Shown piece by piece: positions 13,639 to 46,246 of a stretch of 64,000 nt of DNA. Position 1 is the first letter of the stretch, and each line of letters starts with the position of its first letter. The stretch covers positions 310,001-374,000 of the forward strand of contig OY253690.1 in assembly GCA_958009085.1 (NCBI GenBank), in the 5' to 3' direction. Both the position numbers and the translations under genes were made by a program. The notes under the pieces were generated by a model. It saw only the letters and a program-made list of their open reading frames with translations. It was not told the DNA's origin and did no database searches. This DNA is from Protoeuglena noctilucae (taxonomy: Eukaryota).

Positions 13639-15636
13639 CTAGTGCTCATTTGGGCCACCACAACATGCCATGATGCGCGCCAGCAGGAAGGCTAACTCGT
13701 GGCTCACAAGCTCCCAATCCAGCGAGGTTGGGCCAAATGTTTGCATACCGTAGACAGACTCTCGCCGCGACCCCCGCCGGTACGGATGCGGGTTGCCCTC
13801 CTGCACCCCGCTGTACAGGTGCCCGCTGATCTCGCTCAGCATCTGATAATCGTAGAAGTGCCAGTCGGCCGCAAACAGCTCCAGCACCGCCCCGTGCGGC
13901 GGCATCCACAGCAGGTTGGTCAGGCCGTTGCCGTGCACGCCCACCATGAGGTCGACCCTGGCCGACAGCCGCACCTGCTCCTCCACCGTCATGGCCTCGA
14001 ACCGCACCACCTCAAGCGCCACCCCGTGCTCCTCCAGCATCACCGACGCCAGCCGCGCCAGGTCCTCGTCGCCCAGCTCCCGCAGGCTCATGGCGCGCCG
14101 CACGTACACGGCGCGCACCTCGCCGGGGCTCGCGGGCCGGGGCCGGGGGGACGCGCCGGCGGCGGCATGCACGGCGGCCAGGAACTCCGGGAACCACGCC
14201 CCCACGACGCCGACCGAGTGCTCCAGGTGCTTGTTGAGCCTGGCCGCCGACAGCGGCGGGTTGGCGCCGATGCCGTCCTTGGACGCCACCACCGCGGCGA
14301 AAAGGTGGACGCGGCCCTCCGTGACGATCACGGCGCCAGGGAAGAGAGCTGAGACGAAGAAGTCGTGCAGACGGGCATTGTACGAACTGGGGTCCACCAC
14401 CACGACCAGGGGCTCACGACCCGGCCCGTATTCCCGGGTCCAGGCGTAGAGACCCAGGAGACACTCCATGATGTGGTAGTAGTGGCCATTGCAGAAGGGG
14501 TGCTTGTGCAGGAAAACGATGCCAAAGTCGGCGTTTAATGCCACGTCATTGGCGCCCGCTTCCGAGAGCCAGAGGTCTTCTTGAAAACAGAAAACCTGGT
14601 CCGGCTCATCTCCACCCCTCGGATAGCTTGCTGCGAGGCGCCAGTGCGCCGGGGGTGGCTGCATAAGCCCTGCACTCGCCACCTCGTGCTCTGCATCGGG
14701 TAGTCACGCAGGGCACGTCAGACACTGTGCGGGGTGGCGGGAGCGACGCGCATGCACTTTTTGCCCGCTCTTGGCCCGCACCTGCACGACGCAGGAGCGC
14801 CACCCTGTCTGCGGCAGCAGCTCCGGCCCCTGCCCCAGCCAGGAAGGCCGGCACAGCCTCGGCCAGCCGCTCGCCCTCCCACAGGCGGAAGGTCAGGGGC
14901 TGGGCGTGTCCAGGCAAAAAGACGTCGAGTCTGACCAGGGGCATATGGCGGAGCTCTTTCGCCAACGACTCCACGGCGCACATGGCATCCCCTGCCCCAC
15001 ACTGCGGACGCGAGCAGCTTGTGACATGGAACAGACGCTGTTCCACGAGCCTCTCCGAGCCAGCGACGTTGCCTTGACCATCACCTCCGAGAGCATGTCA
15101 TGAATACGCGGCGACGCGTCTTCCCGGAAAAAGACGGGCACCACGCACTCCACTGACTGCTGAACCTGGACCCAATTCTCGACGATGCGTCCCTCCTCCA
15201 CCGCCTACGGTTGGCGTGGCAGCGGAGGGGGATCCACCACACACGCGGGCGAGCGATGCAGTTTGGCACGGGTCGCAGGTGGCCAGCCACATGCAGCGGC
15301 CCAGACCTGACGCACTGCTTGGCGCGCGAGGGAGATGCGTGGGTCCCCGTGTCCCGGCATCGCATCCATGAAGCGTTTGAAAGCGACGTCCAGCATCTCC
15401 GCGCCCACCGGTTCGAAGGAGAAGGTCTGGTCGCCCACCACAAGGCTGGCCTTCAGCGGCGCCCATCCCGCCGCGAGCACGGCGCCCAGCCTGCGCCAAG
15501 GAGTCCACGGGCTCCAGTTTAGGTCTCATCATTCGATGGCAATGCCCAACAGCCTCGGCAGCGCTTCTCACCCGGCATGGAGCAGCAGCAGGAGGGGCAG
15601 AGCACGTGGCAGCTTCTCCCGCGCGGTCGAAGGCAT
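13639..15636 (-). CDS. GT61-like glycosyltransferase with signal peptide (copy 1)
   Basis: NGHYYHIMECL, VYVRR, RFEAMTVEEQVRL..VDLMVGVHGNGLTNLLWMPPHGAVLELF. N-terminal MPSTAREKLPRALPLLLLLHAG. Upstream exon boundaries are approximate. Confidence 0.8.
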
Positions 15637-15884
15637 CAGAAGGCATCCGCGCCGGAAATACGCTTGCGTCGCTCCACGTCTGCGATCCCTGTGCACGCCA
15701 TCTCGGACTCGTGATGTTGAAAAGTCAGAGAACTGCGTGTCAAAAGGCTTCTTATTCTTCGATGCGCTCAGGGCTGTACTTGTGCTCTTCTAGCTTGTGG
15801 TGCCGCTGTGTGGTTGGACGTCGTTCACACGCTGCATCTGGAGCGTCGGGCAGCCGCTCTGGATTAATTGTGTCTGGGGCGAGG

Positions 15885-17379
15885 ATGGCGGGCGCGATCT
15901 CCACTGCCTCCTCCCTGAGGCAGCCCCATCTCTCGCGGGCGACTAGCGGGAGGGCCGCGTCCAATGCCGGGGTGGCGCTGAGGGCGCATGCTCGCAGGTG
16001 CGGGGATTACAGGGACGATCGCCTGTGCGTGGCCAATCATTCGTGAAATTGCTGGGGCTGCGCGCGCGGCACGATCGCGGCCGGACCCAGCCAGCCCCGC
16101 TGTCGCGCGCTGCCCGCCGCTCCGCCGGCGCCTGCTCCCGTCCGCGCCCCCATGAGAATGAGCTGTTGATATTTATTCATGTCTCGGGATGGCTGCGTCG
16201 GGCCAGACGCTCTCAATGGCTCCAGAGGCGGCCATTCTTTATCTGCGCGCGTCTGTGGGTCCCCAACGGGCGAACCGGCCTCGCTCGGCCATCAAATGCC
16301 GATGCCTCTTCTCGTGGATCTTGCAGCCTGTGGACGCCGTCAAGCCAGGCCATTCCGGCGAACGAGGGGGTCGTGGTGGCACGGGACCTCAACCTGCCCG
16401 TGGTTGCGGGGCGTGGGCCGGCTCCCCCGAGCCCAATTCTCCAGGAGCGCTTCCAGTCCGTCATTTCGCAGGTAAAGATGCGGCCAGGAGCACCTTTTCC
16501 CCGCGCCCGGCGACGCGCGCGGACCCGAACGTCTCAGCCCCCTCCGCCCTCCGCCCTCCGCAGCTCTTCATGCAGCGCATCATCCGCCTCGGGGGCGCCG
16601 TGGACGACGACATGGCCAACCTGATCGTCGCGCAGCTGCTCTACCTGGACTCGGAGGACCCCAAGCGCGACGTCACGCTGTACATCAACTCGCCCGGCGG
16701 CTCGGTCACGGCAGGGATGGCCGTCTTCGACACGATGCGCCACGTCCGGCCCGATGTGTCGACCGTGTGCGGTGAGAACGTGCCGTGCGCAGAGGCGCAC
16801 GCCTGCGACCCGCCTCCTGCGCTTGGCCTCACTGCCGGTGCCCCCTTGCCTCAGTCGGCCTGGCAGCCTCCATGGGGGCGTTTCTGCTCGCGTCCGGGCA
16901 GAAGAGCAAGCGCTACTCGCTCCCCAACTCCAGGATCATGATCCACCAGCCGCTCGGCGGCGCGCAGGCAAGGGCTGGGCGGGGGCGGGGGTGTGGGTGG
17001 CATGCCCGGCACGCTCTCCGACCGTCCTCCCACCCTCCACGCTCCTTCCCCTCACCTCCGTCGCGCAGGGCCAGGCGGCGGACATCGAGATTCAGGCGAA
17101 CGAGATCCTCCACCACAAGCTGACGCTGAACGGCTACCTGGCCGAGTTCACCGGCCAGCCGATGGAGCAGATCACTGTCGACACGGACCGGGACTTCTTC
17201 ATGTCGGCGCAGGCGAGAGGCGCTCGAGCTTGTATTGCTAATTGAGATTGCTGATGGCAGTGCGGGCAGTGCGGGCAGCGAGCTGGCCTCCCTTCCCCGC
17301 TCATCCCCAGGAGGCGGTGGAGTACGGCCTCATTGATGCAGTCGTCACGTCGCCCCACGTCGCGATGCAGACCCCGTGA
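15885..17379 (+). CDS. CLPP5: Plastid Clp protease proteolytic subunit, ClpP5-like, multi-exon
   Basis: [75 protein letters not shown] and [20 protein letters not shown]. Stop at 17377-17379. Confidence 0.95.
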
Positions 17380-17471: not shown

Positions 17472-19571
17472 TCAGCAGCCCTCTGCATACATCTCCCGCA
17501 GCGCCTGGTAGTCCTCCAGAGCGAATCGCGCCAGCGATCCCGCAATCGCGCTGAGATTGTCGCCGAGGATGCTGTACCTGCGGAAGGGCATGGGCCCCTC
17601 CCAGGCCGCCTGCAACAGTGCCGAGGGGCAGCGGTCACAGCCATGCTGGCGCAGCGCGAGACCCGTGCAATGCCGCAAAGATGCAAAGAGGAAGCCATGC
17701 ACTCTCACCACGGTGGGCGCGCCGGGCAGGAAGGGGAGGACCTCAGGCCTGGCAAAGATCACGTCGGTCTGGAGGAGGAGGCCCCCATCGCTCGCCAGAA
17801 GCTGCGGGCGAAGCAAACGCAGTGCGCATGAACCAACCGCAACACATCACCCTAGCTGTGTCCGGATCTCGCCAACCAAGCCGGCTTCGCTCTCACCTGC
17901 CAGTACAGTGCCCCACGGTGCGTCACAGAGATGGCCAGGTCGTCGTACACCTCCCCGTGGTCCCGGATGCCGAACATTGCGAGGGTGTTCAACCGCTGTC
18001 GCTCACTCCCCAATATGTTGCTAACCTCTTCCTGGAGATCCACATCCAGCTCGCCCTCCACGGCCCACGCCCTCCAGACCCAGGGTATGCGTGGGAGGTG
18101 GCAGCGATCGCGGGGCAGCTCGACGAACTCCCTCGTGAGCAGGACGTAGCCCTTGTCTCGCATGAACGCCAGCACCTCGTTCAAGTCCGGCAGCTCCACC
18201 TCGACCTGCACCATCAGCGGCGCGGATGGGCTGGACAGGAGCCGTGACGCCCCCCGAAGGACCGACAGCTCGTGGCCTTCCACGTCGATCTTCATCGTCG
18301 ACGCGGCCGGCACATCCAGCGTCCCGGACAGTAAGAGGTCGTCCTGCGGAGGTGGGCTGGATACAGCTCGATGACCCTTGGCACAGCATCGGGTCTGCGT
18401 ATCCGTCAGCAGGCTTGGTGGCCCTCACCAGCACAGCAAGCTTCACCGCCGCGCCCTCCACGCACGTTGCATCGCTTCGGATGGGACATGGTGACTCGCC
18501 CTCGTCCGGACAGTAAATCTGGCTGTTGCCCCAGTTGGTCTGCATCACGAGAGCGGCACGTCATTGATGTCACCCATGTTGACCCCAAAACTGCGCGTCC
18601 CTCAGAAAATACATCACAGTACCTGGTATGTGGAGATGAAGCACTCCCGCACCCTGTCTGACAGCGCCATGGGAACCACGCTGCGTAAGGGAGAGCTCAC
18701 ATGCAGTCACGAGTCGTGTGACAGGTGATTCGCCCTCGGTACTTGCTCGCGTGCTCCCACCTTATTCTCCCCGCCACGTCCGGGTTCAGGCACAGCGCAC
18801 TGGCTGCCAGGAGCTGGCGGTTCGACGGCATGGGCTCAAACGCCACCGCTGGGAATCCAGCGCGGGAGGCGACGAGCGTGTACCAGCCAAGGTTGGCGCC
18901 AACGTCAAGGAGCGTGGGCGTCACTGACAGACCCCGGGAGGACGCCAGTCGCTGGGAAGCAACCAGTCCCTGAAGCATGGCGGCTGCGGTGGTGGACGTG
19001 AGCGCTGGATTCGTTGCTGCTGCCGGTCCGATCGCTCTGATTCCCAGCCAGGCCAGCCACCTGCTCTTGCCTGTCAAAGCCCCTTCCACCTGCCCCCTCA
19101 ACGCGATCCACTGCACGTGCGATAGGCACAGATGCAATCAACGCGTGCGGGCGACGCCGAGCGGCACACGCGTCCAGCATCAGCCAAGTTACTCACGTCC
19201 GTGATGACATCCACCGCATCTGCAGCGCACAGGGGGCGAGGGGCGAGGTCTGGAGACTGTTGCAACATATGCGGCTGCTCGCCGTCCGCAGGCGACGCTG
19301 CCTCACCGCCATACACCGCCAGCCGGAAGTTGGCCAGACGAACGTCATGCAGGTGGGGCTGCAGGACGTCGGCGACCCGCGTGGCTACTACGACCATCGC
19401 CTCCATGTCGTAGCCAGCGTCCAGGATATCTACCCCCGCCGGATCCTCAGTCGCTTGCAGGCAGGTTGTTTCTTCATCGGATAACGTCAAGCCATTCTGA
19501 TAAAACACGGCGGGGAACCCAAGCACTGCCTGGCTTGCAAACAGCAGAAAGGCAAGGCTAAAGAGCATCAT
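17472..19571 (-). CDS. FkbM-family SAM methyltransferase with signal peptide, multi-exon
   Basis: LLDVGANLGWYTL...AFEPMPSN and MKIDVEGHELSVLRGA. N-terminal MMLFSLAFLLFASQAVLG. Confidence 0.8.
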
Positions 19572-19915
19572 CTGACGCCTGAACAGCAGCAATTCCCTAC
19601 CCTGCAGTGTCTCAACACAAAAACCAAGCACTTCATACACCGAATTCGCGAATCGGCCCTTCCTAGCGACGATGGCACTGGCTAGCTGAGCTGGCGCGTC
19701 GGCACCAGAAGCATCGCAAGCACAGCAGGTAAGGAGGGATGCGTGGCGGATACCATCACTCCACTGCATTCCTCGTGCTCTCGCCGCTTTCGCCGCAGCA
19801 TTCGCGACGACATTCCGCAGTGAGGGAACCAAACCTGCCCCAGATGACACCGATCGCAAGCGCAAGCATGCAATGACGTCCACCCGGCCGTGAGCTTGTG
19901 TGCCGGACATCGTCA

Positions 19916-22110
19916 TGCCACGGCGAAGGGCCACGACGATGGGGCGCTCGTGGGGGCCCTTCTTCCTTGGCGTGGTGACGTAAGGGAAGCCCTGGATGTC
20001 CGCTCTTGAGCACGAATATCAACTTCTCAGCTCACAAACTCCTCTCATCAGCAGGGTCTGGCTCGGAACGGCGCATGCATGGCTCTCAACTTCCATCTCA
20101 TGGCACGGGGGGGGTGCGAGCGTGCGGCACGCGGTTGGGGAGAGTGCGACGGCGGTGGCGAAAGGTTGGGTTGTGCCATTTGCACCATTTCCGCGACCAG
20201 CTTCCCTATGCGAGCTTGATTTCCCGGTCAAGCTTGCTCGCAGGACTGATGCGCCTTTCGACGCATTTTGTCCCCGTTCCTAGCCTGACGGCAACGACAA
20301 ACAAACTTGCTGAAGACATTCAACGCTCCGCCATCACGCTTTGGTACGCACCCGTTTACGAGACGACCGTGGGGCTGGAGGTGGGCCGTGTGCACGCTGC
20401 CCGTTCACACCTGGTGCGTAGCTCACTGCCATGTCTCAGGTCGCCGACCAACCCACTGTAACGCAGGCGGGGCCGGCCCCGTTCGAGCTTTGGTACGGCG
20501 AGGACCCTGCAACGCAGGTGGCCTGGTTTGCTGCTGCCACAGGCATGACCGCGGGTGCCGCCGCTGATCTGCTCGCCGCCGCCACGGACGCCGAGGCGCG
20601 TCACGGGTCCTCGGGGGACGTGCGACTGGCAGAGTTCCGGCTGAGCTCGGGGGAGGGGGAGGCTGTGGCCGTGATGCCCATCTACGGGGCCCAGGCGACC
20701 GAGGCGGCCGTCGGTGGGTTCCTGGACCGCCTGGGCTGCCCGCATCTGAAGGAGGACGTATGGAGAGATGTCCGCGCAGCCCTGGGAGAGCAGGGACTGA
20801 GACAAGACGCCTCCGGCGTTGCCGTCAGGCATCAGGCGGACCCCGTGAGGCGCAGTGCGTGGGTCTCTGTTGCAGGAGTGTCAGTGAGAGTGGCTTAGAT
20901 AGTACCAGCGTCTCCACTCCCGCAGGCCTTTGTTGCCTCCTCCCTTCTCTTGCACCGCTTTTCACGAGCACTCCCGGTCCCCTTTGCCGCGGAAGATGCC
21001 CCGGCCGGGCCTCGGTCACGCGCACTGGGTGCGTGGGCGGGTGCGAGGCGGACGACGGCAGTGCGGTGCCGGGAGGGTGACAGGCCGCCCAGCTGCGGGG
21101 TGGCCGCCAGGAGCTGCGGGGGCGTCCTCGTCACGGGGCCGCCTCAGTCGAGTTTGGACGTTTTGGGGAAGCTTGTCGGTGTCGAGGAAAGGACCGGTCG
21201 CAAAAAGAGCCGTGGGGGAGCTGATGTGCATACACAGGTTGCCCCTAATCACGTGTCTAAGTGCTCATCGTGCCTTTCGTCCCACGCAGGGCCCTGCTGT
21301 GGAGTACGGGGACGTCTCCCAGACGCTGGCCGTGGGCCGCGAGTACCGCCACGTGTTGCTGCAGGTAAGGCTGGGCTATCTCGTTCCTATGTCTCGAGGT
21401 GGCCACTGCCGGCGGTTTCAGACCTGGCCTTGCCGACTCCCCTTCCTGCCGTGCAGGTCACCCACCCTCTAGTGGCCGCGAACCAGCTCCTGCACACGTG
21501 GCATACGCTCGACCGTGACTTGGCTCACCTGAGGGCATGGCACGTGAACCACGTGCTGATGGGCGCATCGAGTGCCGGGGACGGGCCTCTGACGCTGCAG
21601 GACGTGCATGTGGCCAGGCACAAGTGGGCGGACTTGACGTTGAACGACCCGGTCAAGGCGCTGGCCGTGTGGGTGATGGCCGTGGAGGCGGGCCTCAGCC
21701 ATGCGCAGTGCTGGTGGCGTTTGGAGGACGTGGCCGCGCATCCTGGCCTGGCCGGGCGCGTCTGCGAGGCCGTGGCTGCGTCCCGGGAGCTCCCAGCCAC
21801 GGACCTGGGGTGTTACGCCAGAGAGGATGCCTGGGGCGGCCAGGTTGAGGCCGGGCTGTCTAATGCGGGCCTCCCGCCCCCGTCCCTGGTGAGTGGCCGG
21901 CGCTGCTGACACCGCCTTGCGACTGGCGAGGTGCAGATCCATCCACAGGAGCTTTCCGCGCAGGGTGGGCTGTCCTGGGGCGCTCTGGAGGCGACTTCAC
22001 GTCCGATGGAGCAGGAAATCGTGCGGGGTGCCCGGCAGTGGTGCACGCTGCTGGGGTACGCCGGCTGCTGAAAGGTACGGACTTGACGGTAGTGAGTAGT
22101 GAGATGAGAA
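19916..22110 (+). CDS. Sulfotransferase-like protein with repeated N-terminal modules (boundaries approximate)
   Basis: LVTGPPQSSLDVL, YRHVLLQV(T)HPL and CWWRLED. Paralogous to 25516-27495. Carries FELWYGEDP modules. Confidence 0.5.
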
Positions 22111-22146: not shown

Positions 22147-23204
22147 TCAAAGCTCAGAGCTGTGCTCTGCATTCAATATGTACAATCCCACCGCGTATCC
22201 GCGGGGGGTGTAGACCTTGGCCGCGTCCGAGGACAGAGACCACCACCTGAGCTGCCTCACAAGCCCACGCTCTTGGGACAGCTGCCAGCACTTCATCGGG
22301 CCGACGCAGTAGGAGGCTGCAAGACGAGAACAAACGAGGCCGTCGGCAACACCCCTGTAGCGCTTGGCAGCTGCATGTTTAAGCCTTGCCACCACCCGCC
22401 TCACCCTGGCAGTGCACGTCGTCCATCAGCAGCACGTGGAAGGCAGGGTTGGCCAGGGGCATGAAGTTGACGATGTCCAGGTAAGGTAGGTCGCCGAAGT
22501 GGCCACCGTCGACGAGGACGATGTCGCAGCGCACTTCCCCCCCGGCGGGCGAGTTGACGAACCCGGGGATCGAGTCGAGGCTGTTTCCGGTGACCATCGC
22601 CAGCCGGCCGGGGAAGCGCTCTCCAAGGAAACGCAGCGCCACGGGCGAGTAGTCGTGCTCGAAGATGTCAAAGGACGTAACGACATTGTCCGCGTCGGCA
22701 AGGAGCCAGAGCGCTGCCGAGTGGCCCGCGTTGAACCCCAGCTCGCACACGTGCTTGACGCACGGGATCTTCGCGAGCGCCTGATACAGTTTCCTGCGGG
22801 GAACCGGGGTTTGGCTACGTTCAGGCTGCTATATTTTCGAGGGTCAGGATGTTCTCCCTGAGATGTCCACGCACCTCTGAGGTTCGATCTCGCCACTGTG
22901 CCCTTCTGTTACGGCAAGACCTGCTTTCTCCAAGAAGGCATCCAGGTCGCTGTGCAGACGGTTCAGCTCTGAGAGGTCCTCCTCGGCCCAGGCTCCATCA
23001 AGCACGGCTGCGAGCTGCGCCTCGCACGCGGCCGGGCTCGGCTGCCAGGCTGCAGAGAGAAGGACAGACTTTGACCGCTCCCGACGCCTTGCTCAGGGCA
23101 GGCCTCGCTTGTTCATAAGACGCAGTCGCTTGCCTGATGCGAAATGGTTCCAGAGGAGAACACTCAGGGCGGCCAGGGCGAGCATCGCGCGTGACCACGA
23201 GCCA
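22147..23204 (-). CDS. Class I SAM methyltransferase (Methyltransf_24-like), multi-exon, ends approximate
   Basis: CELGFNAGHSAALWL...SFDI...GNSLDSIP...CDIVLVDGGH...LLMDD. Confidence 0.78.
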
Positions 23205-23484
23205 TGGGGACGAGGAGGCCTAAGCAAAGCGCACATCGCGGATCAACGAGAAAGGGAAGCCCAGGGAGCACCCCCCGAGTGTTGTCGAAGCTCTGCTGGC
23301 CGCACTGCGACGAGGATACGATCAACACTCAACTTGATCCGTGATCGGCCTCTCAACTTTCACGGGGCAGCGCTGGAAACGCCAGCGCTTGTGTGAGTCG
23401 TGAGGTTTCACGGGGAGGGGGTCTGGCAGTACTCGCTTCTCCTGGATCAGCCGGGTCGCCATGAGCGTTTTTTCATGACCCCGG

Positions 23485-25415
23485 ATGCCGCTGGATGGGC
23501 GAAGACGGTGCTGCGGACGCGAGCATTCGTGCCGCCGTGCCGCGGCAGTGCTTTGCGTCGTATTTGCCTGCCTCTCGTGCTGGTGGGCCGCGTCATGCAC
23601 AGCTCGTGAGCTTATAATTCCGCTCAGCATCGCCGGCGAAGCGCTCGCGGTTCGGTACGAGCCCGAGGATCTTGTCGACAGCGCTTTCTCGCGGTTCGTG
23701 CGCGAAACGCCATGGCCGCTTACGCGAGACTCCCTGGCCTCCCAGGCCCGGCGCGCCTTTCAGGCGGTAAGCTGCAGGCGCTTGTGACAAGATGCACACG
23801 CTCTCGCTGCCGGCAAGGGCGCCCATGTCGTCGTCTGCGCAGGCGGTGATGGAGCGCCGCTGCCCGCTTATGCGACTGAGAATCAGCTGCCCAGGCACAT
23901 TAAACATGGCATTGATCCACGACGTGTACCAGGGAGACGATGAGGAGTCAATCTTGTCATCCCTGCTGCAGGTCCGTCGCATGCCCGGCCCTTTCATGTG
24001 GCAACGGGCCTCCGCTCGCATCCTCGAGCGTGCCGACGGTTCGCTGTGCGCAGTGTGGGAGCACTGACGCGGCCTCGCTGAACCTGGCTCCCCTCGCGCC
24101 CCCTCGTGTCGCGCCCGTCCTGACCCTGGACGCTGCTGGATCCGAGCCAGGGACCTTCCGCCTCTGGGAAGGGGAGCGGCTCCACGAGGCAATGACCGCT
24201 TTTGTGCCCTGGGCTGAAGTGACGAGCTTGGATGAGTTGGACGCTGCAACCAAGCGTGCTGGTGCGGCCACGAACTGAGGCGTGCAGCGCAGCTGCCCAA
24301 AGTTACTGTGCTCCTCGTCAAACAGGTCTTCTCCGTCTTATCTCGCAGAAGACAGGCTGCGCCTCGTGTCCAGGAGGAACCGGGACCTTGTGCCCTACCT
24401 GTGGCGCATGCCGGCCAGGACACATCCTGTGGGGTTCGAGCCCGATCAGGCCTTCCCTTTGAGACGAAATGTCAAGATTTCGTCATCTGATGCGAGCCGG
24501 GGGCGCGCCGATCGCGATGCCCAGGGTAAGCCCGCCTGGGAGGCCGAGTCCGGCATCGTCCTGCAGCTCAGCATGGCCTTCTGCAACAGGCACTACTACC
24601 ACATCGTCGAGTGTCTCCTGGGTCTCTACGCCTGGTCCCGCGAGCACCGCATGGGTGGGGACCCCGTCGAGGTGGTGGTGGTCGACGATGACATCCGCAC
24701 GCCGACACACGATTTCCTCACAGCAGCCCTGTTCCCGGGTGCGCGCGTGGAGATTAGACGACCCGGCCACCTGTTCTCGGCAATAGTCTCCGACAAAGCC
24801 GCGTTGTCGGAGAACATCCCACGGTCTCTCATAAACACCCAGCGAGCCCTGGAGCACTCCGCGGTCGTCGAGTCCTTTTGGTTCCCGGAGTTCCTGGCCG
24901 CCGTGCATGCCGCCGCCGGCGCGTCCCCCCGGCCCCGGCCCGCGAGCCCCGGCGAGGTGCGCGCCGTGTACGTGCGGCGCGCCATGAGCCTGCGGGAGCT
25001 GGGCGACGAGGACCTGGCGCGGCTGGCGTCGGTGATGCTGGAGGAGCACGGGGTGGCGCTTGAGGTGGTGCGGTTCGAGGCCATGACGGTGGAGGAGCAG
25101 GTGCGGCTGTCGGCCGGGGTCGACCTAATGGTGGGCGTGCACGGCAACGGCCTGACCAACCTGCTGTGGATGCCGCCGCACGGGGCGGTGCTGGAGCTGT
25201 TTGCGGCCGACTGGCACTTCTACGATTATCAGATGCTGAGCGAGATCAGCGGGCACCTGTACAGCGGGGTGCAGGAGGGCAACCCGCGGCCGTACCACCG
25301 GGGGTCGCGGCGGGAGTCCGCGTACGGAATGCAAATATTTGGCCCAACCTCGCTGGACTGGACATTGCTAGGAGACGGAATCACTTACCTCTTGGCACAC
25401 GTCCTGGCAAAATGA
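23485..25415 (+). CDS. GT61-like glycosyltransferase (copy 2)
   Basis: NRHYYHIVECL and VDLMVGVHGNGLTNLLWM. Hydrophobic N-terminus AAAVLCVVFACLSCWWAAS. Confidence 0.8.
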
Positions 25416-36499: not shown

Positions 36500-38572
36500 A
36501 TGCCCTCTCTCCCCGCCTTTCTAGTGGCCACTCTCCTTGAGTTAGCTGTCCTCTGTGCTCTGGTGGGTCTCTCCCGCGGATCGGAGGTGCGCGTGTCCCC
36601 CAAGCTGCGTCCGACAGACTTTGGTGACTTCGAGACGTCATGTTTGACAGACGTCGCAGCAAATCTGGCCGAGGTGGTTTGGGTCGAGCGCGTTGATCTC
36701 TCCAGCGTCTACCGGCACGTCCCATGGGCTGTGCCTCCCCGGCCGTTCCGCATGCTCCTCAAGCGCGGTGATTCCTGCCGAGCTCCCGCCGTAGCCGACG
36801 GCAGTGTCCCCGGCCCTTTAGACATGACGATAAGCACGCTCCCGTGCCGTCCTCGCAGATAATGACTATATTTCTGAGGTAGGCACCCCAGGCATGCCTA
36901 CAAGCGAGCAAGCGCTGGGGATGCTAGTTGTGGGTAAGCATCAAAAGCCACGGCCACCTTTCTCGCGTCTCAGAAGATTGGAACCGTCGGGGCATGGGAG
37001 CCAGGCGTCACAGGCGAGGCCAGTCGCAGGGTGGCTCAGCAAGCCACGCGATGATTGGCCGAGCATGCCGGCCCTGCATGACCCACTGAGTGATCTCACC
37101 GCAGCTGCGATCCTCCACGGGCTGTCCGCGGCGACTCTACACGGCGCGGGGCGGGGCGGGGCGGCCGCGTTGGTCGACGTGGGGACCCACGTTGGGTGGC
37201 ACACAGTCGTCGCGGCCCTGGCCGGGCACCCCGTGGTCGGCATCGAGCCCTTCTGGCGGAACCGCGTCATATTGGAGGCCACCGTGTCGTGCCTGAACCC
37301 CCACCTGGGAGCGCTTGTGCACGTGGAGCCGGTGGCGCTCTCGGACCGCAGCGACACGTGCATGCTCCGCTACCACGAGGCGTGTGCGCTGTGCCATGCC
37401 CCGCGGTCGACGGCCTCCCCGTGCGTCCCGGGGTGGTGGCGTGATTCGCTCTGCCCTGTCGCTTTGCGCCTGCAGGACTTCAGCCTCAACACCCAGCTCT
37501 ACTGCGAGAGCGACGGCGTTCCACCCTGCGAGCCACCCCTCCACACCGAGGGTTGCATGACGCACGATGGTCTGGTGGACGTCACTACCCTGGTGACCCT
37601 GGCGAGCCGCGGCGGTCTCGTTGCCGGGGCCGCTGCACCTGATCCCTCATGCCCACCCCCGCGCTCCTGCACCCAGGACGCCCTGGCCTCTTCCGGCCGG
37701 CTGCCCTTGGACCGGCCCATGGTCCTGAAGATCGACGCCGAGGGCCGCACCCTGCGCATCCTCCACGGCGGAGCGGCGCTCCTCGCGGGGCCCCGCGCGC
37801 CGCTCCTGATTGAGGCGGAGCTTGAGGGCCCGCACATCCGCGAGGCCGTCGACCTGCTGCAGGCGCACGGGTACGTGCTCCTGACGCGCATGTTCACGGA
37901 GCTGCCCCGGTGCGGGCAGCATGGCGCGCCGTGGCGCTGGGAGGCAGTCCGGCTAATGGGCGACTACGAGCTCGACATACTGGACATCCTGCGCGAGTCG
38001 TTTGAGGCCACCAGCATGGGCGTCGCCTTCACTTTCATGGAAGAGTCTTTTGAGGCAGCGGGCCTTGCCGGGAGTCGCGTGAGAGCTGTGCTGGGGGCCT
38101 ATGAGGATGCGGGTGTGACCCTCAAGCACCAAGGCCCGCTCTACCACAAGGTGACGGCCACGGACGCAGTGCTGTCTTGCGCATGAATGCACTGCGCATG
38201 TCCGCCGCAGCGAGGTATGAGAGGGTCGCACGCAGGCGAGGAGGGCCCTGGAGGCATCGCTGCAAATGGACGTCATTTTCGCCAAGGAGTCGCTGCTGCC
38301 CTTCCTCCCTGGGGCGCTCCAGGTGCGGCGGCTTCATTGCTGCACTTAACGAGTGTAACCAATTTGCGCGACTCACGAATGACATGCGCCATGCGTCCCA
38401 CGCGCCGCAGGTGAAGGAGATGGGGCGCGTCACTCTGCAACAGTACGCCATGCTGGGTGACGATCTGTCTGCGGCCCTGGGGCCTTTACTGGCTTCCACT
38501 GCACGAATTCCTGGCCTAGTGTTCCGTGACCTTCACAGGGGCACCATTACTCCATGCGAGCCACCTCTGTGA
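36500..38572 (+). CDS. FkbM-family methyltransferase with signal peptide (paralog of 17472-19571)
   Basis: LVDVGTHVGWHTV...GIEPFWRN and VLKIDAEG. Shares LQMDVIFAK...LPFLPGA and LGDDLSA exons with the paralog. Confidence 0.8.
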
Positions 38573-38729: not shown

Positions 38730-39798
38730 GCCACGGAGGAGCGCAGGCTCACGCACCCGTCGTCCGCAACTGCCGGGATGGTGTCCGGGACACCTGCCGT
38801 GGTGCCCGTGCGCCTCTCGCAGAAGCGCACGGCGGGGAGGAGCTTGGCACGGAAGGACGACAGCGACGACCACGACGATCCCTTCCGCTCCGACGACCTG
38901 GGGCGGGCATTCATGGTGTTGAGTGCAGCGACAGATGCCTCCCATGCATGTATCGCAATAGAGTGGCGCCATGATCCGGCATTGTATCCGGCTTCTGCGT
39001 CTGGCGCTCGCCTGCTGATGGCGTCCCGGGCGCGGACCGCCTCCGCCAGCCGGGACAGCGCGTCTGCGGTCGCATCCCCGCACGCCATCTGCGACCGGCC
39101 CTCGCACGTCTGGGCGTACGCGGCCCCCTCGCGCCTCGTCTCCGCATCCGCGCCCACCTCCGCGAGGTCTGCGGGGGGGCGCCGGCGGTGATGAGCGCCG
39201 CGTAGGGCGAGTCACAACAGTCCATCTTCCCTGCGCAGCAGCCCGCACCGCACAGGTCCCGGGCGTGCGCCGCCGCCTTCTTCAGCTTCTGGGACACGCG
39301 ATGCTTAAAGGAGCCGGCCTCCACGGCGCCCTCCTCGCGGCGCAGGATCTCGGCGCGCGCCCAGGCCCGCTCAGCGCGGAGCAGGTGGACCATCAGCGGC
39401 CGGGGGTCGTCGCCCCGGGCCTCCACCGCCCTGCAAGAGACCGCAAAGCATCACAGGTTCGCGCACGTGCGCGAGCTCCTTCGAACGCCCCACGGCGCCA
39501 CCCTTAGCCCGCCCCTCTGCACCTGCGCACGAACTTGCTCCGCCCGTGGTTGATCTTCAGGCCGCGGTACAGGCGCCGTAGCCTGGACGTGCAGAACTTT
39601 GCATAGCGGTGGTAGTCCTCGTACTGCAGCTCCAGAGAAGCAAGGGAGGTCACACAACAAGCGACGTTGCACCAACCAGGCAAGTCTGCGCGCTGAGCCC
39701 ACCTTGAGGCCATGCTGGTCCTGCCAGTCATTCACGGATTCAAAGACCTTCAGGAACGCTGGGGCGCTTGGTGGCCCCGCCTCCTCCGAGGCATCCAT
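38730..39798 (-). pseudogene. Truncated duplicate of the SRP68 5' half
   Basis: Near-identical to 10556-11615. The downstream SRP68 exons (9042-10330) are not present here. Confidence 0.8.
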
Positions 39799-40469
39799 GA
39801 CAGTGTGGGTTCTCAAGCGGCTGTTGCTGTGAGTGTGTGGGCCCGCGCGATGCCGAGAAGGCCGGCAGAAGAACAGCACCGCGCGACATCGAGCCAGCCC
39901 GGCGTAAAAGAAGAAGTAGATCGCGCCAAGCTCTATTGCACCGCACTCTGTAGGTGGGGAAAAGTGCCCGTGCCGGAGAAAAAGTTTCACGCGCATTGCG
40001 CGAGGGAGCAATGCCACGGCGGACGGGCGCCAGTCCGGCGATCAAGTCCTCAGCGGGATTGACGGAACGCGTCGCGCGACGGCGGACGACGCGGCGGCGC
40101 CGAACGGGTCCTGCAGGGCGGCGCGGCGACCGCGCGTGCTGCGGACGGCAGCTTTGAAAGGGGATAATGCGAGTGGCGGCGGCCGCGGGACGTCCGCGGC
40201 GCGGCAGACGCAGCGCGGAGCTGACTGCAGTGGGGAGGGATCGCACGCACTCCGCGGACGATGGCGACGACCTCGCGGCGGCGACGTGTCCGTTATGACG
40301 GGCGGGATCGCACCGCGCGGGACGCGAGGTCCCGGACGTCCCGGCGACCGAGTGTCAGGGGCGGGCAGCGATGCCGTGCCGCAGCGTTCAACGGGGGCGA
40401 TCCCGGCGGCTACCGGCGCCGTGCGACGCGCGAGCGGCTATGCGTGGGCGAGCCGCGACGAGCACAGGG

Positions 40470-40833
40470 TCACGGCGCCGCGCGGAGCGCGGCCAGCGAC
40501 GCGTGGGCCGGGCGCATGTGGCGCATCGCGTGGAGGACCTGGACGATCTTGAGGTCGACCCCGCGGGCTCGGAAGATCTGCCTGAACTCCGCCCTGCTGT
40601 GCCTGACGAAGTGCAGCTGCGCGGCCGACTGGACGCGCGACATGGCCACGTACGCGTGGCCGCTGGCGAAGCGCCCCGCGAGGTCGAGGAGGACGTCGGT
40701 GGCGCACGTGCTGCCCTGGGCCTTGTGCACCGTCATGGCGAAGACGGCTCGCAGAGGGAACGCCTCCACCTTGGCATGGCTCGTCGTGCACGCGGAAGTG
40801 GAAGTCGCGACGCGTGATGGGGGTCATATGATG
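40470..40833 (-). pseudogene. Duplicate PIF1 helicase fragment
   Basis: Identical to 12287-12650. Confidence 0.7.
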
Positions 40834-41821
40834 GTCACACGAATCCCATCCTGGTGAACGCCGGTCGCCCCACTTGGGACACACTTGCCATCCGCAGTAC
40901 CCACAGTCCACCTGGAAAACTAGTCAGGCAGGGTTGACACCCCCAACTCTGGCCCGTACACGCCATGGCTGTCGGGCTGACGGCACGAATCGCATACTTA
41001 TACAGCTGGTTGTCATAGACGACGTTCGTGCGCTTGTCCACCACGTGTGTCTCCGTGCCCGGCAGCCGAAACGACACCGACACCAGGGGGATGCACAAGT
41101 ACTGGCCCGCCTTCACGACTGACGCATGCCTCCTCAAGGGCATCTTTGTGCCCGACGAGAACATCAACCCTTTCAACACCCTCACCAACGACGGACGCGA
41201 GCAAAGGTGCGCGCAGCTTCCCTTTGCAAACCCGCAGCGCACAGCCGCTCACACTACGACAGACGCTACCCCCTATTCCCCCAAACCCCAGGCATCACCT
41301 CCCTCATCGAGGTCGACAAGAGGTACCGCATTAACACCTCCGCTTTCCAGTCCTCGCCGAGCCCCAACCAGAAGAGCCTCCTCTTGCGCCCACGGCGCGA
41401 CCAAGGCCGACGTGGACCGCATCCTCACCGAGATGACCCACGACGCCGCCACGCCCAAGGCAATCCACGACCTACCCCTGACCCGCGATGACGCTGACGA
41501 TGACTGACGCGTATGCCACTGCATGCCTAGCCCTGCTGCTAACCTCCCATACACGCAATTGACCCTCAAAACCCACATCCTCCTTCATAATCCCTCCTGC
41601 GCGACTAAGCCGGGGGCCTGGGCCCCCCGGTCCTGATGTCTAAGAAGTGGATGTGGATGTGGATGTCAGGGCCCTCGCCAGTGTCTGTGACGGACGTGCC
41701 AGCCTCTAGACGGGGTGCACAATACCTGATTACGCCAGATCCTCGAGGGCACATCATTCCGCGTGCTCACATCATCACCAAGTGCTTCCACATCACTAAA
41801 GCCGCTGGACATAGGGTTTAG

Positions 41822-43827
41822 CTAGTGCTCATTTGGGCCACCACAACATGCCATGATGCGCGCCAGCAGGAAGGCTAACTCGTGGCTCACAAGCTCCCAA
41901 TCCAGCGAGGTTGGGCCAAATGTTTGCATACCGTAGACAGACTCTCGCCGCGACCCCCGCCGGTACGGATGCGGGTTGCCCTCCTGCACCCCGCTGTACA
42001 GGTGCCCGCTGATCTCGCTCAGCATCTGATAATCGTAGAAGTGCCAGTCGGCCGCAAACAGCTCCAGCACCGCCCCGTGCGGCGGCATCCACAGCAGGTT
42101 GGTCAGGCCGTTGCCGTGCACGCCCACCATTAGGTCGACCCCGGCCGACAGCCGCACCTGCTCCTCCACCGTCATGGCCTCGAACCGCACCACCTCAAGC
42201 GCCACCCCGTGCTCCTCCAGCATCACCGACGCCAGCCGCGCCAGGTCCTCGTCGCCCAGCTCCCGCAGGCTCATGGCGCGCCGCACGTACACGGCGCGCA
42301 CCTCGCCGGGGCTCGCGGGCCGGGGCCGGGGGGACGCGCCGGCGGCGGCATGCACGGCGGCCAGGAACTCCGGGAACCACGCCCCCACGACGCCGACCGA
42401 GTGCTCCAGGTGCTTGTTGAGCCTGGCCGCCAACAGCGGCGGGTTGGCGCCGATGCCGTCCTTGGACGCCACCACCGCGGCGAAAAGGTGGACGCGGCCC
42501 TCCGTGACGATCACGGCGCCAGGGAAGAGAGCTGAGACGAAGAAGTCGTGCAGACGGGCATTGTACGAACTGGGGTCCACCACCACGACCAGGGGCTCAC
42601 GACCCGGCCCGTATTCCCGGGTCCAGGCGTAGAGACCCAGGAGACACTCCATGATGTGGTAGTAGTGGCCGTTGCAGAAGGGGTGCTTGTGGTGGAGAAT
42701 GATGCCAAAGTCGACGTCCATCGCCATCGCACTGTTTGAGGTGGCACTTGCCCCCGTGAGCCAGACGTTGTGTCTAAGGTAGAAAACCTGGTCCAGCTCA
42801 TACCCGCCCCTCGGATAGCTTGCTGCGAGGCGCCAGTGCGCCGGGGGTGGCTGCATAAGCCCTGCACTCGCCACCTCGTGCTCTGCATCGGGTAGTCACG
42901 CAGGGCACGTCAGACACTGTGCGGGGTGGCGGGAGCGACGCGCATGCACGTTGTGCCCGCTCTTGGCCCGCACCTGCACGACGCAGGAGCGCCACCCCGT
43001 CTGCTGTAGCAGCGTCGGCCCCTGCCCCAGCCAGGAAGGCCGACACAGCCTCGGCCAGCCTCTCGCCCTTCCACAGACGGAAGGTCAGGGGCTGGGCATG
43101 CCCAGGCAAGGCGACGTCGAATCTGACCAGAGGCATGAAACCCATCTCCAGGGCGGTCGCTTCCATAAGCCCAGTGGCGAACTCCGCTCCACACAGCAAA
43201 TCGCAAGCGCTTTTCTGTGACGCTGGCCTGGCCTTCGGCCTTTTCCAGCTAACATGAAACCCAGTGCTCACACCTCTGAAAGCGTGCCACGAATACGCTC
43301 CGACGCGTCTTCAGTGCCGAAGAGCGGGATTGCGCAGGTCCATTCATTGTGCATAGCGTGGTCAGTGACGAACATGGGCCAAATCATCGTTTCGGGAATC
43401 CGCTTTTCTTCCACGGCCTGCGACGAGCGGGAGGACGTTAGAGTGAGGCAAAGGCCCCCCGGCGCAGCTCGGGGCAGGTCCACATGCACAACATACCCAT
43501 CACCTGGCGCACCGCCTGACGCGTGAGGGAAGCGAAGTGTTCGCATGCTGGGCAAGCTGGGATCCCGTCCAAAAAGCGCTTGAACGCATTGTCCACAAAT
43601 TCGGTGGCCTCCCACGAGAAGTAAAAAGCCTGTCCCGCCACCACGATGCTTGTGGTAAGTTGCCTCACGGCCCCCGCAGCCACAGCAAACAGCCTGCAAG
43701 GTCGAGGTCGATGGGCTTCAGTGGTCCTGTCGACGCTGTGGAAGAAATAGGGTCCCGGACCCCGCGGCGGCGCATCTTACGCGGCGTGGAGCCACAGCAG
43801 GAGGAGCAGCCTGTCACACATCCGCAT
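41822..43827 (-). CDS. GT61-like glycosyltransferase (copy 3)
   Basis: Same catalytic exon as copy 1. N-terminal MRMCDRLLLLLWLHAA. Confidence 0.8.
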
Positions 43828-43974: not shown

Positions 43975-44174
43975 NNNNNNNNNNNNNNNNNNNNNNNNNN
44001 NNNNNNNNNNNNNNNNNNNNNNNNNNNNNNNNNNNNNNNNNNNNNNNNNNNNNNNNNNNNNNNNNNNNNNNNNNNNNNNNNNNNNNNNNNNNNNNNNNNN
44101 NNNNNNNNNNNNNNNNNNNNNNNNNNNNNNNNNNNNNNNNNNNNNNNNNNNNNNNNNNNNNNNNNNNNNNNNNN
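43975..44174. other. Assembly gap (200 N)
   Basis: Run of N. Confidence 1.
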
Positions 44175-44240
44175 TATCGACCCCGAGAACCCCCCCCTCC
44201 TCCGGTAGTCCTCATCCCTTGCGCCGCGTTGCTCTCTCTG

Positions 44241-46246
44241 ATGCGGATGTGTGACAGGCTGCTCCTCCTGCTGTGGCTCCACGCCGCGTAAGATGCGCCG
44301 CCGCGGGGTCCGGGACCCTATTTCTTCCACAGCGTCGACAGGACCACTGAAGCCCATCGACCTCGACCTTGCAGGCTGTTTGCTGTGGCTGCGGGGGCCG
44401 TGAGGCAACTTACCACAAGCATCGTGGTGGCGGGACAGGCTTTTTACTTCTCGTGGGAGGCCACCGAATTTGTGGACAATGCGTTCAAGCGCTTTTTGGA
44501 CGGGATCCCAGCTTGCCCAGCATGCGAACACTTCGCTTCCCTCACGCGTCAGGCGGTGCGCCAGGTGATGGGTATGTTGTGCATGTGGACCTGCCCCGAG
44601 CTGCGCCGGGGGGCCTTTGCCTCACTCTAACGTCCTCCCGCTCGTCGCAGGCCGTGGAAGAAAAGCGGATTCCCGAAACGATGATTTGGCCCATGTTCGT
44701 CACTGACCACGCTATGCACAATGAATGGACCTGCGCAATCCCGCTCTTCGGCACTGAAGACGCGTCGGAGCGTATTCGTGGCACGCTTTCAGAGGTGTGA
44801 GCACTGGGTTTCATGTTAGCTGGAAAAGGCCGAAGGCCAGGCCAGCGTCACAGAAAAGCGCTTGCGATTTGCTGTGTGGAGCGGAGTTCGCCACTGGGCT
44901 TATGGAAGCGACCGCCCTGGAGATGGGTTTCATGCCTCTGGTCAGATTCGACGTCGCCTTGCCTGGGCATGCCCAGCCCCTGACCTTCCGTCTGTGGAAG
45001 GGCGAGAGGCTGGCCGAGGCTGTGTCGGCCTTCCTGGCTGGGGCAGGGGCCGACGCTGCTACAGCAGACGGGGTGGCGCTCCTGCGTCGTGCAGGTGCGG
45101 GCCAAGAGCGGGCACAACGTGCATGCGCGTCGCTCCCGCCACCCCGCACAGTGTCTGACGTGCCCTGCGTGACTACCCGATGCAGAGCACGAGGTGGCGA
45201 GTGCAGGGCTTATGCAGCCACCCCCGGCGCACTGGCGCCTCGCAGCAAGCTATCCGAGGGGCGGGTATGAGCTGGACCAGGTTTTCTACCTTAGACACAA
45301 CGTCTGGCTCACGGGGGCAAGTGCCACCTCAAACAGTGCGATGGCGATGGACGTCGACTTTGGCATCATTCTCCACCACAAGCACCCCTTCTGCAACGGC
45401 CACTACTACCACATCATGGAGTGTCTCCTGGGTCTCTACGCCTGGACCCGGGAATACGGGCCGGGTCGTGAGCCCCTGGTCGTGGTGGTGGACCCCAGTT
45501 CGTACAATGCCCGTCTGCACGACTTCTTCGTCTCAGCTCTCTTCCCTGGCGCCGTGATCGTCACGGAGGGCCGCGTCCACCTTTTCGCCGCGGTGGTGGC
45601 GTCCAAGGACGGCATCGGCGCCAACCCGCCGCTGTTGGCGGCCAGGCTCAACAAGCACCTGGAGCACTCGGTCGGCGTCGTGGGGGCGTGGTTCCCGGAG
45701 TTCCTGGCCGCCGTGCATGCCGCCGCCGGCGCGTCCCCCCGGCCCCGGCCCGCGAGCCCCGGCGAGGTGCGCGCCGTGTACGTGCGGCGCGCCATGAGCC
45801 TGCGGGAGCTGGGCGACGAGGACCTGGCGCGGCTGGCGTCGGTGATGCTGGAGGAGCACGGGGTGGCGCTTGAGGTGGTGCGGTTCGAGGCCATGACGGT
45901 GGAGGAGCAGGTGCGGCTGTCGGCCGGGGTCGACCTAATGATGGGCGTGTACGGCAACGGCCTGACCAACCTGCTGTGGATGCCGCCGCACGGGGCGGTG
46001 CTGGAGCTGTTTGCGGCCGACTGGCACTTCTACGACTTTCAAGAGCTGAGCGAGATCAGCGGGCACCTGTACAGCGGGGTGCAGGAGGGCAACCCGCATC
46101 CGTACCGGCGGGGGTCGCAGCGAGAGACGCAGTACGGTATGCTAACATTTGGCCCAACCTCGCTGGATTGGGAGCTTGTGAGCCACGAGTTAGCCTTCCT
46201 GCTGGCGCGCATCATGGCATGTTGTGGTGGCCCAAATGAGCACTAG
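44241..46246 (+). CDS. GT61-like glycosyltransferase (copy 4) with the GVHG motif changed to GVYG
   Basis: Mirror of copy 3, but reads LMMGVYGNGL, YDFQELSE and SQRETQYGMLTF. Confidence 0.78.

Follow-up and report, generated by a model that had tools for sequence, protein, structure and literature searches.

A putative island of secretory-pathway glycan enzymes, with evidence of transcription, in the nuclear genome of a marine green alga

Genes, transcripts, and secretory signals of the cluster

We analyzed a 64,000-nucleotide (nt) stretch of DNA from Protoeuglena noctilucae (contig OY253690.1, positions 310,001 to 374,000; the whole stretch is referred to as the window), and its segment from 13.6 to 46.3 kb was found to hold four GT61 glycosyltransferase genes, two FkbM and one Methyltransf_24 methyltransferase genes, two genes for sulfotransferase-fold proteins, and two weakly supported GT-A glycosyltransferase genes. 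Protein families were assigned by a Pfam scan of 126 open reading frames (ORFs) picked by third-position GC and of 77 more ORFs from the region. An initial annotation, made from the sequence alone, had described 11 glycan-building and glycan-decorating genes in about 33 kb, and all of them were located (Table 1). It had also described a largely alternating strand order, and this was borne out, as the order is − − + − + − + − + − + and nine of the 10 steps between neighbors switch strand. The genes form four divergent pairs with start codons about 250 to 460 nt apart (FkbM_1/Sulf_1, Mtf24/GT61_2, Sulf_2/GTA_1, and GT61_3/GT61_4), which may share promoter regions. Two convergent pairs, ClpP/FkbM_1 (15784–18342) and Sulf_1/Mtf24 (19900–23200), were each spanned by single RNA contigs, and therefore their 3′ ends overlap or abut.

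Table 1. Features located in the window, cluster genes first
Feature	Position	Strand	Evidence and remarks
GT61_1	13639..15636	−	ORF 13642–14703, PF04577 48.4 bits; splice model; RNA 13425–14690 in 3 runs
FkbM_1	17472..19571	−	ORF 17855–18424, PF05050 40.3 bits, E 4.8e-10; N-terminal signal; RNA 17897–18342, 3 runs
Sulf_1	19915..22071	+	Signal peptide; two N-terminal modules; degenerate PAPS motifs; seven introns, six as RNA joints
Mtf24 (Methyltransf_24, 278 aa)	22147..23236	−	ORF 22382–22828; signal peptide; three introns as RNA joints, 3 runs
GT61_2	23485..25415	+	ORF 24279–25412, PF04577 47.6 bits; RNA piece 24348–24878; ATG at 23485, then hydrophobic stretch
Sulf_2	25516..27544	−	QYSGT loop; R-x-P-x5-S motif; two N-terminal modules; 5′ end uncertain; RNA piece 25705–26093
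GTA_1, candidate GT-A (GT2-like)	28000..29944	+	DSD motif; signal peptide; lower GC; RNA depth 0–3.6
GTA_2, candidate GT-A	30104..31380	−	DVD motif; convergent with GTA_1; ends uncertain; RNA depth 0–0.2
FkbM_2	36500..38570	+	ORF 36834–38183, PF05050 19.9 bits; N-terminal signal or anchor
GT61_3 (538-aa model)	41822..43827	−	ORF 41825–42895, PF04577 48.2 bits; 75% aa identity to GT61_1
GT61_4	44241..46246	+	ORF 45173–46243, PF04577 43.6 bits; inverted copy of GT61_3, 98.5% aa identity
ClpP protease (non-glycan)	15784..17379	+	PF00574 E 1e-27; spliced RNA joints
MULE + SWIM transposase (non-glycan)	32480..34927	+	PF10551 E 2.5e-9; SWIM E 8.8e-5; lower-GC stretch
4.4-kb direct segmental duplicate	38752..43136	.	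Holds SRP68 5′ fragment, helicase-fragment repeat, and 3′ part of GT61; Pfam matches in both copies
200-N scaffold gap	43975..44174	.	Centre of inverted duplication, arms 41758–43893 / 44175–46310
Possible capsid-like ORF	51511–52668	−	Impression only
Weak integrase-core match	52715–53728	−	E 0.0046
1222-aa Dda-like helicase with HNH-like end	53743–57408	−	AAA_30 2.3e-5; Dda-like 2.3e-4
1515-aa fibre-like ORF, open at window end	59454–63998	+	23-residue repeats; phrog_21765 6.9e-13; phrog_18412 1.2e-9

Transcription was assessed by mapping three marine metatranscriptome runs and one run labelled with the organism (X2, from a different study) on positions 12500–32499. RNA contigs were found on six of the eight glycan genes checked (GT61_1, FkbM_1, Sulf_1, Mtf24, GT61_2, and Sulf_2). 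Among the joints listed (15 of 43), splicing removed GT..AG introns of 75–103 nt and one of 329 nt, and these joints included three to four in the ClpP gene, six in Sulf_1, and three in Mtf24; for FkbM_1, GT61_2, and Sulf_2, the ends of the RNA pieces coincide with predicted splice sites. The spliced contigs and their 75–103-nt GT..AG introns upheld the view that these are eukaryotic genes. Three of about 14 resolved introns were unusual: 17213–17310 and 23050–23133 read GC..AG, and 21185–21287, which two RNA runs show and the stored ORF P0020 bears out, reads AG..GC as mapped. The remaining gene models came from our own splice modeller (codon log-odds plus GT/GC..AG introns), corrected with the RNA joints and by eye. 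Overall, the nine genes other than the GT-A pair have a host-like GC content at third codon positions (GC3) and four to eight introns each. Sequence words sampled from 16000–25999 were recovered at 0.99 in marine metagenome runs, which may be the source of the window, and in four labelled-organism runs, and at 0.47–0.59 in four marine metatranscriptome runs; 14 of the 24 listed runs, from four studies, were positive.

Most of the genes had been said to start with a hydrophobic signal or anchor, and 10 of the 11 encoded proteins indeed begin with a hydrophobic segment, taken here as a 15-residue stretch with a Kyte-Doolittle mean of at least 1.5 within the first 60 residues. Eight first-pass models had such a segment and better start codons at 23485 (GT61_2) and 28000 (GTA_1) added two, leaving GTA_2, the ends of which are uncertain, as the sole protein with no N-terminal hydrophobic signal assigned. 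Two homologues from outside the window, P0146 and P0018, likewise begin with a hydrophobic segment. The N-terminal stretches are short and end in small residues, and in this respect they resemble cleavable signal peptides more closely than long type II anchors.

Enzyme families and a module they may share

The GT61 assignment held for all four ORFs, which scored 43.6–48.4 bits against PF04577 (cut-off, 27 bits). GT61_1 consists of a signal peptide, N-terminal repeat modules, and a GT61 catalytic domain in the last exon (13639–14609), and the same architecture (signal peptide, an N-terminal region of about 200 residues, catalytic domain) is seen in P0146, a transcript-type orthologue from a related organism that has 539 amino acids (aa) and is 55% identical to GT61_3 over 518 residues. 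The fold was examined on this orthologue rather than on a spliced protein of the window. Its AlphaFold model (mean predicted local distance difference test score [pLDDT], 72.8; catalytic part, 80–98; N-terminal part, mostly below 50) matched POMGNT2, a solved GT61 enzyme, with top rows that were all POMGNT2 (E 1.4e-9; 16 matches at E ≤ 0.001).

This GT61 subfamily is rare, since only 16 proteins were found at E ≤ 0.001 among 8000 candidates scored. Its nearest relatives are unnamed marine sequences, followed by bacterial proteins (Azospirillum, 35% identity) and then by fungal ones with partial coverage; a search of JGI metagenome contigs for the GT61 alignment gave 372 pattern matches, none of which was confirmed. 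Among 185,579 species genomes, a relative at 27–38% identity is encoded at 11 loci (eight alphaproteobacterial, two "Proteobacteria," and one Flavobacteriaceae), and the neighborhoods of four of them (L002, L003, L005, and L007) were scanned, comprising 63 ORFs. In the Azospirillum locus L003, the relative lies with an epimerase, a GT2, a GT4, two S-adenosylmethionine (SAM) methyltransferases, and an acyltransferase; in L005, it adjoins a WcbI-TPR-Methyltransf_24-GT90 fusion, a second GT61, a GDP-mannose-dehydratase-like gene, and a GT90. These neighborhoods supported the idea, put forward in the initial annotation, that such nonhomologous families act jointly on glycans, as bacterial GT61 relatives stand beside GT2, GT4, SAM methyltransferases, and a Methyltransf_24 fusion.

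The calls of two FkbM genes and one Methyltransf_24 gene were likewise sustained. FkbM_1 exceeds the PF05050 cut-off of 22.7 bits; FkbM_2 falls below it, yet it is 37% identical to FkbM_1 over 351 aa (E 3e-60, spliced models). Truncation of FkbM_2 by the duplication boundary at 38752 was considered and ruled out, since its frame ends near 38570 with a tail of its own. Mtf24 scored 33.4 bits (E 9.2e-8) against PF13578, above the cut-off of 26.3 bits.

Sulf_1 and Sulf_2 are paralogous (29% identity over 521 aa, E 5e-30), and residues 46–521 of the Sulf_1 model equal residues 2–477 of the stored transcript-type protein P0020, differing only at the first residue of P0020, which independently confirms this gene model. 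When 1.84 billion representatives were searched by HMMER with the last exon of Sulf_2, only seven proteins matched; among them, P0017 corresponds to the exon of the window itself, P0020 and P0022 to forms of Sulf_1, and P0018 and P0021 to full-length homologues from outside. As for structure, comparison of the P0018 AlphaFold model with 48,161 chains returned sulfotransferases in the first 17 rows (Z 11.0–7.7; 163–181 residues aligned, model range 284–502), and generic P-loop kinases ranked below them. A protein-language-model look-up also led to Sulfotransfer_1/3 clusters (score 0.93–0.94, a lead only). By sequence, a PDB search with the Sulf profile gave no sulfotransferase and only a chance MinC match (E 0.17), and P0018 and P0021 had no match in PHROGs. 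Sulfotransferases dependent on 3′-phosphoadenosine 5′-phosphosulfate (PAPS) have a 5′-phosphosulfate loop with Lys or Arg before S-G-T and a 3′-phosphate motif, R-x-P-x5-S. The loop reads PRSGT in eight bacterial Sulfotransfer_3 domains; the 3′-phosphate motif is present after the next strand in Sulf_2, P0018, and P0021 and absent from Sulf_1. At their C termini, Sulf_1 (22071), Sulf_2 (25516), FkbM_1 (17472), and P0018 have a similar short tail with Gly/Asp-Cys just before the stop, and the GT61_1, GT61_3, and GT61_4 proteins have a Cys-Cys-Gly-Gly stretch at the C-terminal end; the similar tails may be a shared signal or a coincidence.

For the GT-A pair, DxD motifs were found (DSD in GTA_1 and DVD in GTA_2, each after a hydrophobic strand), such short motifs being weak evidence, and the models have a later acidic motif typical of GT2-like enzymes. 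Profile support was weak for GTA_1 and nil for GTA_2. The best single exon reached 14.3 bits (E 0.039) against Glycos_transf_2 at the DxD motif, below the PF00535 cut-off of 23.3 bits. With our own hidden Markov model (HMM) of 28 alphaproteobacterial GT2 domains, GTA_1 ranked best of 1511 sequences (E 0.016–0.018; best of 200 shuffles, 0.38), and the spliced GTA_2 model gave no match. The two proteins are 20% identical (E 1e-3), a weak paralogy. No homologues of the GT-A exon were found among longer proteins; its nearest Atlas clusters are viral (score 0.91, a lead only), other leads are viral or unnamed, and two consecutive GT-A exons gave weak collinear matches to the phage family phrog_1574. 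RNA cover in the three metatranscriptomes was near zero over 27.8–32.5 kb, which is no proof of silence. The pair lies, together with the MULE transposase, in a 27.6–36.4-kb stretch with a GC content of 0.38–0.62, and between the pair and the transposase there is an AT-rich patch (31600–32400; GC, 0.38–0.40). A search for terminal inverted repeats around the MULE/GT-A block found none.

Units of about 50 residues occur in the N-terminal parts of both the GT61 and the Sulf proteins, each unit comprising a hydrophobic strand pair, an aromatic-x-hydrophobic-Trp/Phe-x-Gly-acidic stretch, and a helix. With an HMM made from five Sulf-family units, GT61 exons were the best nonself matches among 1302 sequences (E 1.1e-4 twice and 2.1e-4), and the outside orthologue P0146 and GT61_2 followed at E 1.1e-3 and 0.09, respectively. 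The reverse HMM, made from GT61 units, matched Sulf_2 (E 1.4e-3), P0020 (0.16), and P0018 (0.24), and nothing else in the window fell below E 0.25 with these HMMs. AlphaFold models of P0018 and P0146 draw the module regions, at low confidence, as a beta-hairpin plus helix. On the strength of these reciprocal matches, we consider it quite probable that the GT61 and Sulf modules are homologous.

Duplication, gene conversion, and surroundings

The ongoing duplication that had been suspected was corroborated by self-comparison, which revealed segmental duplications, and the GT61 paralogues also show gene conversion. Positions 10570–14944 recur directly at 38752–43136 (98.1% over 4390 nt), and 41758–43893 recurs in inverted orientation as 46310–44175 (99.4% over 2138 nt), centred on the run of Ns. 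The 4.4-kb direct duplication came first and the 2.1-kb inverted one after it. In run X2, depth was 99–105 on unique parts, 313–373 on the stretch common to three copies, and 500 on the core common to all four, that is, 3.0–3.8 times the baseline on three-copy segments and about five times on the GT61 core; depth counts copies and not their arrangement. Because the depth in this independent labelled organism gives about five GT61 cores, the copies are probably real. P0003, a fifth paralogue, reaches only 67–68% identity to anything in the window, and the five or so core copies may correspond to the four GT61 genes of the window plus P0003, if P0003 sits on the window's contig. These data suggested that all of the approximately five copies of this core in the labelled organism lie on this contig.

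The paralogues are mosaic at the nucleotide level. GT61_1 and GT61_2 are 97–100% identical in alignment columns 901–1260 and 28–77% elsewhere; GT61_3 and GT61_4 are 92–97% identical in columns 1081–1350 (the 3′ part) and 100% elsewhere; and GT61_1 versus GT61_3 drops to 62–85% in columns 361–540. GT61_2 thus appears to be a diverged paralogue, the 3′ catalytic half of which has been converted to near identity with the other copies. On other contigs, P0148 and P0150 are chimeric GT61 sequences with a P0003-type N-terminal part and a GT61_1-type C-terminal end, which suggests allelic or strain-level recombination in natural populations. Together, the mosaic paralogues and the chimeras bear the signature of repeated gene conversion, and this argues against a simple assembly artefact. 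A repeat element with a UvrD_C_2/Pif1-like helicase fragment lies at 12000–13400 and 40200–41600, inside the 4.4-kb duplicated segment. Its depth of about 5.5 times the baseline in the labelled organism indicated further copies elsewhere, and it may have mediated the 4.4-kb duplication.

With respect to the surroundings, the G+C content of the window is about 65%, and the cluster is like its flanks (~0.65) with a dip only at 27.6–36.4 kb. Housekeeping genes adjoin the cluster genes. For the plastid GapA-type GAPDH in the window, the best named matches were all Viridiplantae (Volvox, Chlamydomonas, Chloropicon, Chlorella, and others) at 50–66% identity, none of them close, and neither Micromonas nor Ostreococcus was among the best 120 matches. 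From these features, the window appears to be nuclear DNA of a marine green alga that has no closely related annotated genome. The GAPDH gene, at 6498–8192(−), has a 565-codon open frame with about 170 residues before the NAD-binding domain, which is longer than a usual transit peptide and may include a read-through intron. First exons of SRP68 occur in two copies (10533–11548 and 38914–39731), which cover profile positions 1–103 only; further exons of the gene were not detected beyond either copy, and both may be fragments, or the remainder may be too diverged.

From about 51.2 kb to the window end, a block with a third-position GC of about 0.95 contains the last four features of Table 1 and is plausibly a virus-like integrated element. 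Its possible capsid-like ORF had no match in IMG/VR, PHROG, or Pfam. The block begins about 5 kb past GT61_4, and nothing was found that ties it to the cluster.

Interpretation and comparison with known systems

Taking these results together, we reasoned, with some reserve, that the cluster is probably a genuine island of transcribed, lineage-specific genes for secretory-pathway enzymes in the nuclear DNA of this marine green alga, which likely builds or decorates a surface or wall glycan. The observation of the initial annotation was thus confirmed, and its interpretation was partly supported. GT61s, FkbM and Methyltransf_24 methyltransferases, sulfotransferase-fold proteins, and probably two GT-A enzymes would be packed head-to-head and tail-to-tail, and their likeliest role would be to build and decorate, step by step, a glycan or glycoprotein of the cell surface or wall within the endoplasmic reticulum and Golgi apparatus, where the transferases would add sugars, the methyltransferases would O-methylate them, and a sulfate-type modification might follow. 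The island would grow and vary by segmental duplication, with the 4.4-kb direct copy followed by the 2.1-kb inverted copy, while gene conversion would keep the GT61 catalytic domains nearly identical in their C-terminal halves as the N-terminal halves and the leader modules diverge. The outcome would be a small enzyme family with the same chemistry and probably different acceptors, and the island as a whole looks like a rapidly varying set of tools for modifying the cell surface.

A number of points weigh against this reading. As for expression, the RNA mapping covers eight of the 11 glycan genes, those up to 32.5 kb, contig depth in metatranscriptomes is unsuited to ranking genes by expression, and the home-made gene models are approximate, chiefly at their 5′ ends. 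As for gene content, the GT-A pair is weakly assigned and almost silent in RNA, and non-glycan features lie among the cluster genes (ClpP, the MULE+SWIM transposase, two SRP68 N-terminal fragments, and two copies of the helicase fragment/repeat). Recent GT61 duplicates inflate the count of 11; since three of the four GT61 genes arose by recent copying, the cluster reduces to about eight independent genes in five independent families. Two of the four bacterial neighborhoods scanned are poor in, or devoid of, other glycan genes: the GT61 gene of L002 adjoins a single Glyco_trans_1_2 gene, and L007 has two tandem GT61 genes amid housekeeping genes. As for the sulfotransferase-like call, the fold stood, as predicted on a homologue model, and membership of a sequence family and the loop Lys/Arg did not. 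No Pfam family was found at E ≤ 1 for P0018 and P0021 or at E ≤ 10 for the Sulf exons. The P0018 model has low overall confidence (mean pLDDT, 45.8; C-terminal domain, partly 65–85), and hhalign against the eight bacterial Sulfotransfer_3 domains aligned the cofactor loop only (22 columns, E 0.0034, probability 9.5%). In Sulf_2, P0018, and P0021, Tyr or Phe occupies the Lys/Arg position of the loop, with S-G-T retained, and Sulf_1 has lost both PAPS motifs; therefore, sulfation is doubtful. Judged by the predicted fold, the Sulf pair represents a very rare family of sulfotransferase-like proteins, for which Pfam has no model and in which the cofactor loop is altered.

The same facts on gene content could mean that the genes are real and functionally unrelated, so that the cluster is a chance neighborhood made up mostly of copies of one GT61 segment. 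Three of the four GT61 genes are indeed copies with 98–99% DNA identity, and ClpP, the transposase, the SRP68 fragment, and the repeat are interspersed among the glycan genes. However, when the copies are collapsed, five unrelated families still lie within about 18 kb (13.6–31.4 kb), and if a glycan-gene background of 2% is assumed, the probability of five families among about 12 loci is of the order of 1e-6. Moreover, two of the families are extremely rare, namely, the GT61 subfamily (16 matches) and the sulfotransferase-like exon (seven of 1.84 billion representatives), the GT61 and Sulf proteins seem to have a common N-terminal module, and bacterial GT61 relatives co-occur with GT2 and methyltransferase genes. 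We therefore regard a chance neighborhood as unlikely.

It is also conceivable that the block, or at least its part at 27.6–36.4 kb, which holds the GT-A pair and the MULE, came in recently from a virus, a bacterium, or a transposon and that the host makes no use of it. The dip in GC to 0.38–0.62, the RNA depth of 0–3.6, the viral Atlas clusters nearest to the GT-A exon, the weak phrog_1574 matches, and the bacterial identity of the nearest named GT61 relatives would fit such an origin. On the other hand, the GT-A models require many short introns of host type, terminal inverted repeats were not found, and the other nine genes show host-like GC3, introns, and spliced RNA where this was checked, so any transfer of GT61 must be old; a foreign island is thus quite unlikely. 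A scaffolding error could instead account for the inverted copy at the 200-N gap, and perhaps for the 4.4-kb copy as well, which would leave only two or three GT61 genes. In keeping with this, the source is a metagenome assembly, and the palindrome, with arms that are 99.4% identical, is centred exactly on the N run. Against it, the X2 depth reaches the multiples given above on the three-copy segments and the core, counting copies and not arrangement, and the arms differ in a clustered tract (columns 1081–1350), as expected of distinct paralogues. An assembly artefact is therefore, in our judgment, very improbable.

If the cluster is a host island for surface or wall glycans, a more specific picture can be drawn, which we offer tentatively and deem unlikely. 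The locus might encode a modular luminal "assembly line" of soluble signal-peptide enzymes of unrelated folds (GT61, sulfotransferase-fold, and perhaps FkbM), all with copies of the ~50-residue beta-hairpin-plus-helix module, which exon shuffling would have distributed among the genes of the locus. Through this module, and in place of a type II anchor, the enzymes would bind a common scaffold or substrate, and mosaic GT61 conversion would generate surface-glycan variants at the population level, making this a virus- or grazer-evasion locus outside Mamiellales. Among the titles listed by our literature searches, there was no description of an algal cluster joining FkbM, glycosyltransferase, and sulfotransferase genes. 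To our knowledge, few of the enzymes behind glycan O-methylation in algae have been identified, and the secretory FkbM and Methyltransf_24 proteins are candidates for this role. The cluster also provides new protein material, namely, the very rare Sulf family, with the cofactor loop of its sulfotransferase fold altered, and what may be a new docking module, and its genes are abundant enough to assemble from ocean metatranscriptomes.

With regard to individual families, the Sulf proteins resemble PAPS sulfotransferases (Sulfotransfer_1/2/3; TPST, StaL, and the sulfotransferase domain of olefin synthase) in their predicted fold and in a strand-loop-helix with S-G-T in the loop, and they differ in having an added module region at the N terminus and, at the C terminus, a conserved tail that ends in Cys. 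Characterized GT61 enzymes, which we take to include plant xylosyl- and arabinosyltransferases and EOGT besides POMGNT2/AGO61, are matched by the cluster GT61s in PF04577; the predicted fold is like that of POMGNT2, whereas identity to it is only about 16–18% and the cluster subfamily is closest to bacterial proteins. A 2013 survey reported that the green and red algal genomes it analyzed yielded no GT61 orthologues of the plant N-glycan enzymes (PMC3797821).

Bacterial polysaccharide loci (Azospirillum and Acetobacteraceae; L001–L011) share the GT61 subfamily and the logic of sugar transfer plus methylation. Those loci are operon-like and encode cytoplasmic enzymes of about 340 aa, whereas the algal genes contain introns and have separate promoters, and their products carry signal peptides and some 200 aa of additional N-terminal module region. 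Giant-virus glycogene clusters (PBCV-1 A064R/A061L and Mimivirus) also combine glycosyltransferases and methyltransferases in a eukaryote-infecting system, and their genes have promoters of their own and act in sequence on one glycan (Chem Rev 2022, PMC9614988). These genes are viral, intron-free, and cytoplasmic, however, and no sequence relationship to the algal cluster was found in the present analysis.

Glycan-building genes are rarely clustered in eukaryotes, and the known exception, the small outlier chromosome (SOC) of marine green picoalgae, is tied to virus resistance. By analogy, the SOC of Mamiellales appears to be the closest precedent for the present cluster. According to its published description, the SOC is enriched in glycosyltransferases and methyltransferases and has an FkbM gene, a large inverted repeat, recent paralogues, and transposon genes; for example, chromosome 19 of Ostreococcus tauri carries glycosyltransferases of putative foreign origin, and virus resistance via surface glycans has been proposed (Yau et al. 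2016, PMC5082852). The cluster differs in lying amid housekeeping genes at normal GC (~0.65, with the dip only at 27.6–36.4 kb), in an alga whose GAPDH has neither Micromonas nor Ostreococcus among its best 120 matches. Its families, alphaproteobacterial-type GT61, Methyltransf_24, and the new sulfotransferase-fold family, set it apart as judged by the SOC text, and the gene lists of chromosome 19 may hold closer ones; it also adds a possibly shared N-terminal module. Like the SOC, the cluster shows enrichment in glycosyltransferases and methyltransferases, duplications that include an inverted one, and a transposon gene. If the cluster is a second such island, expressed and of different composition, in another green alga, marine phytoplankton may quite generally rely on loci of this kind.

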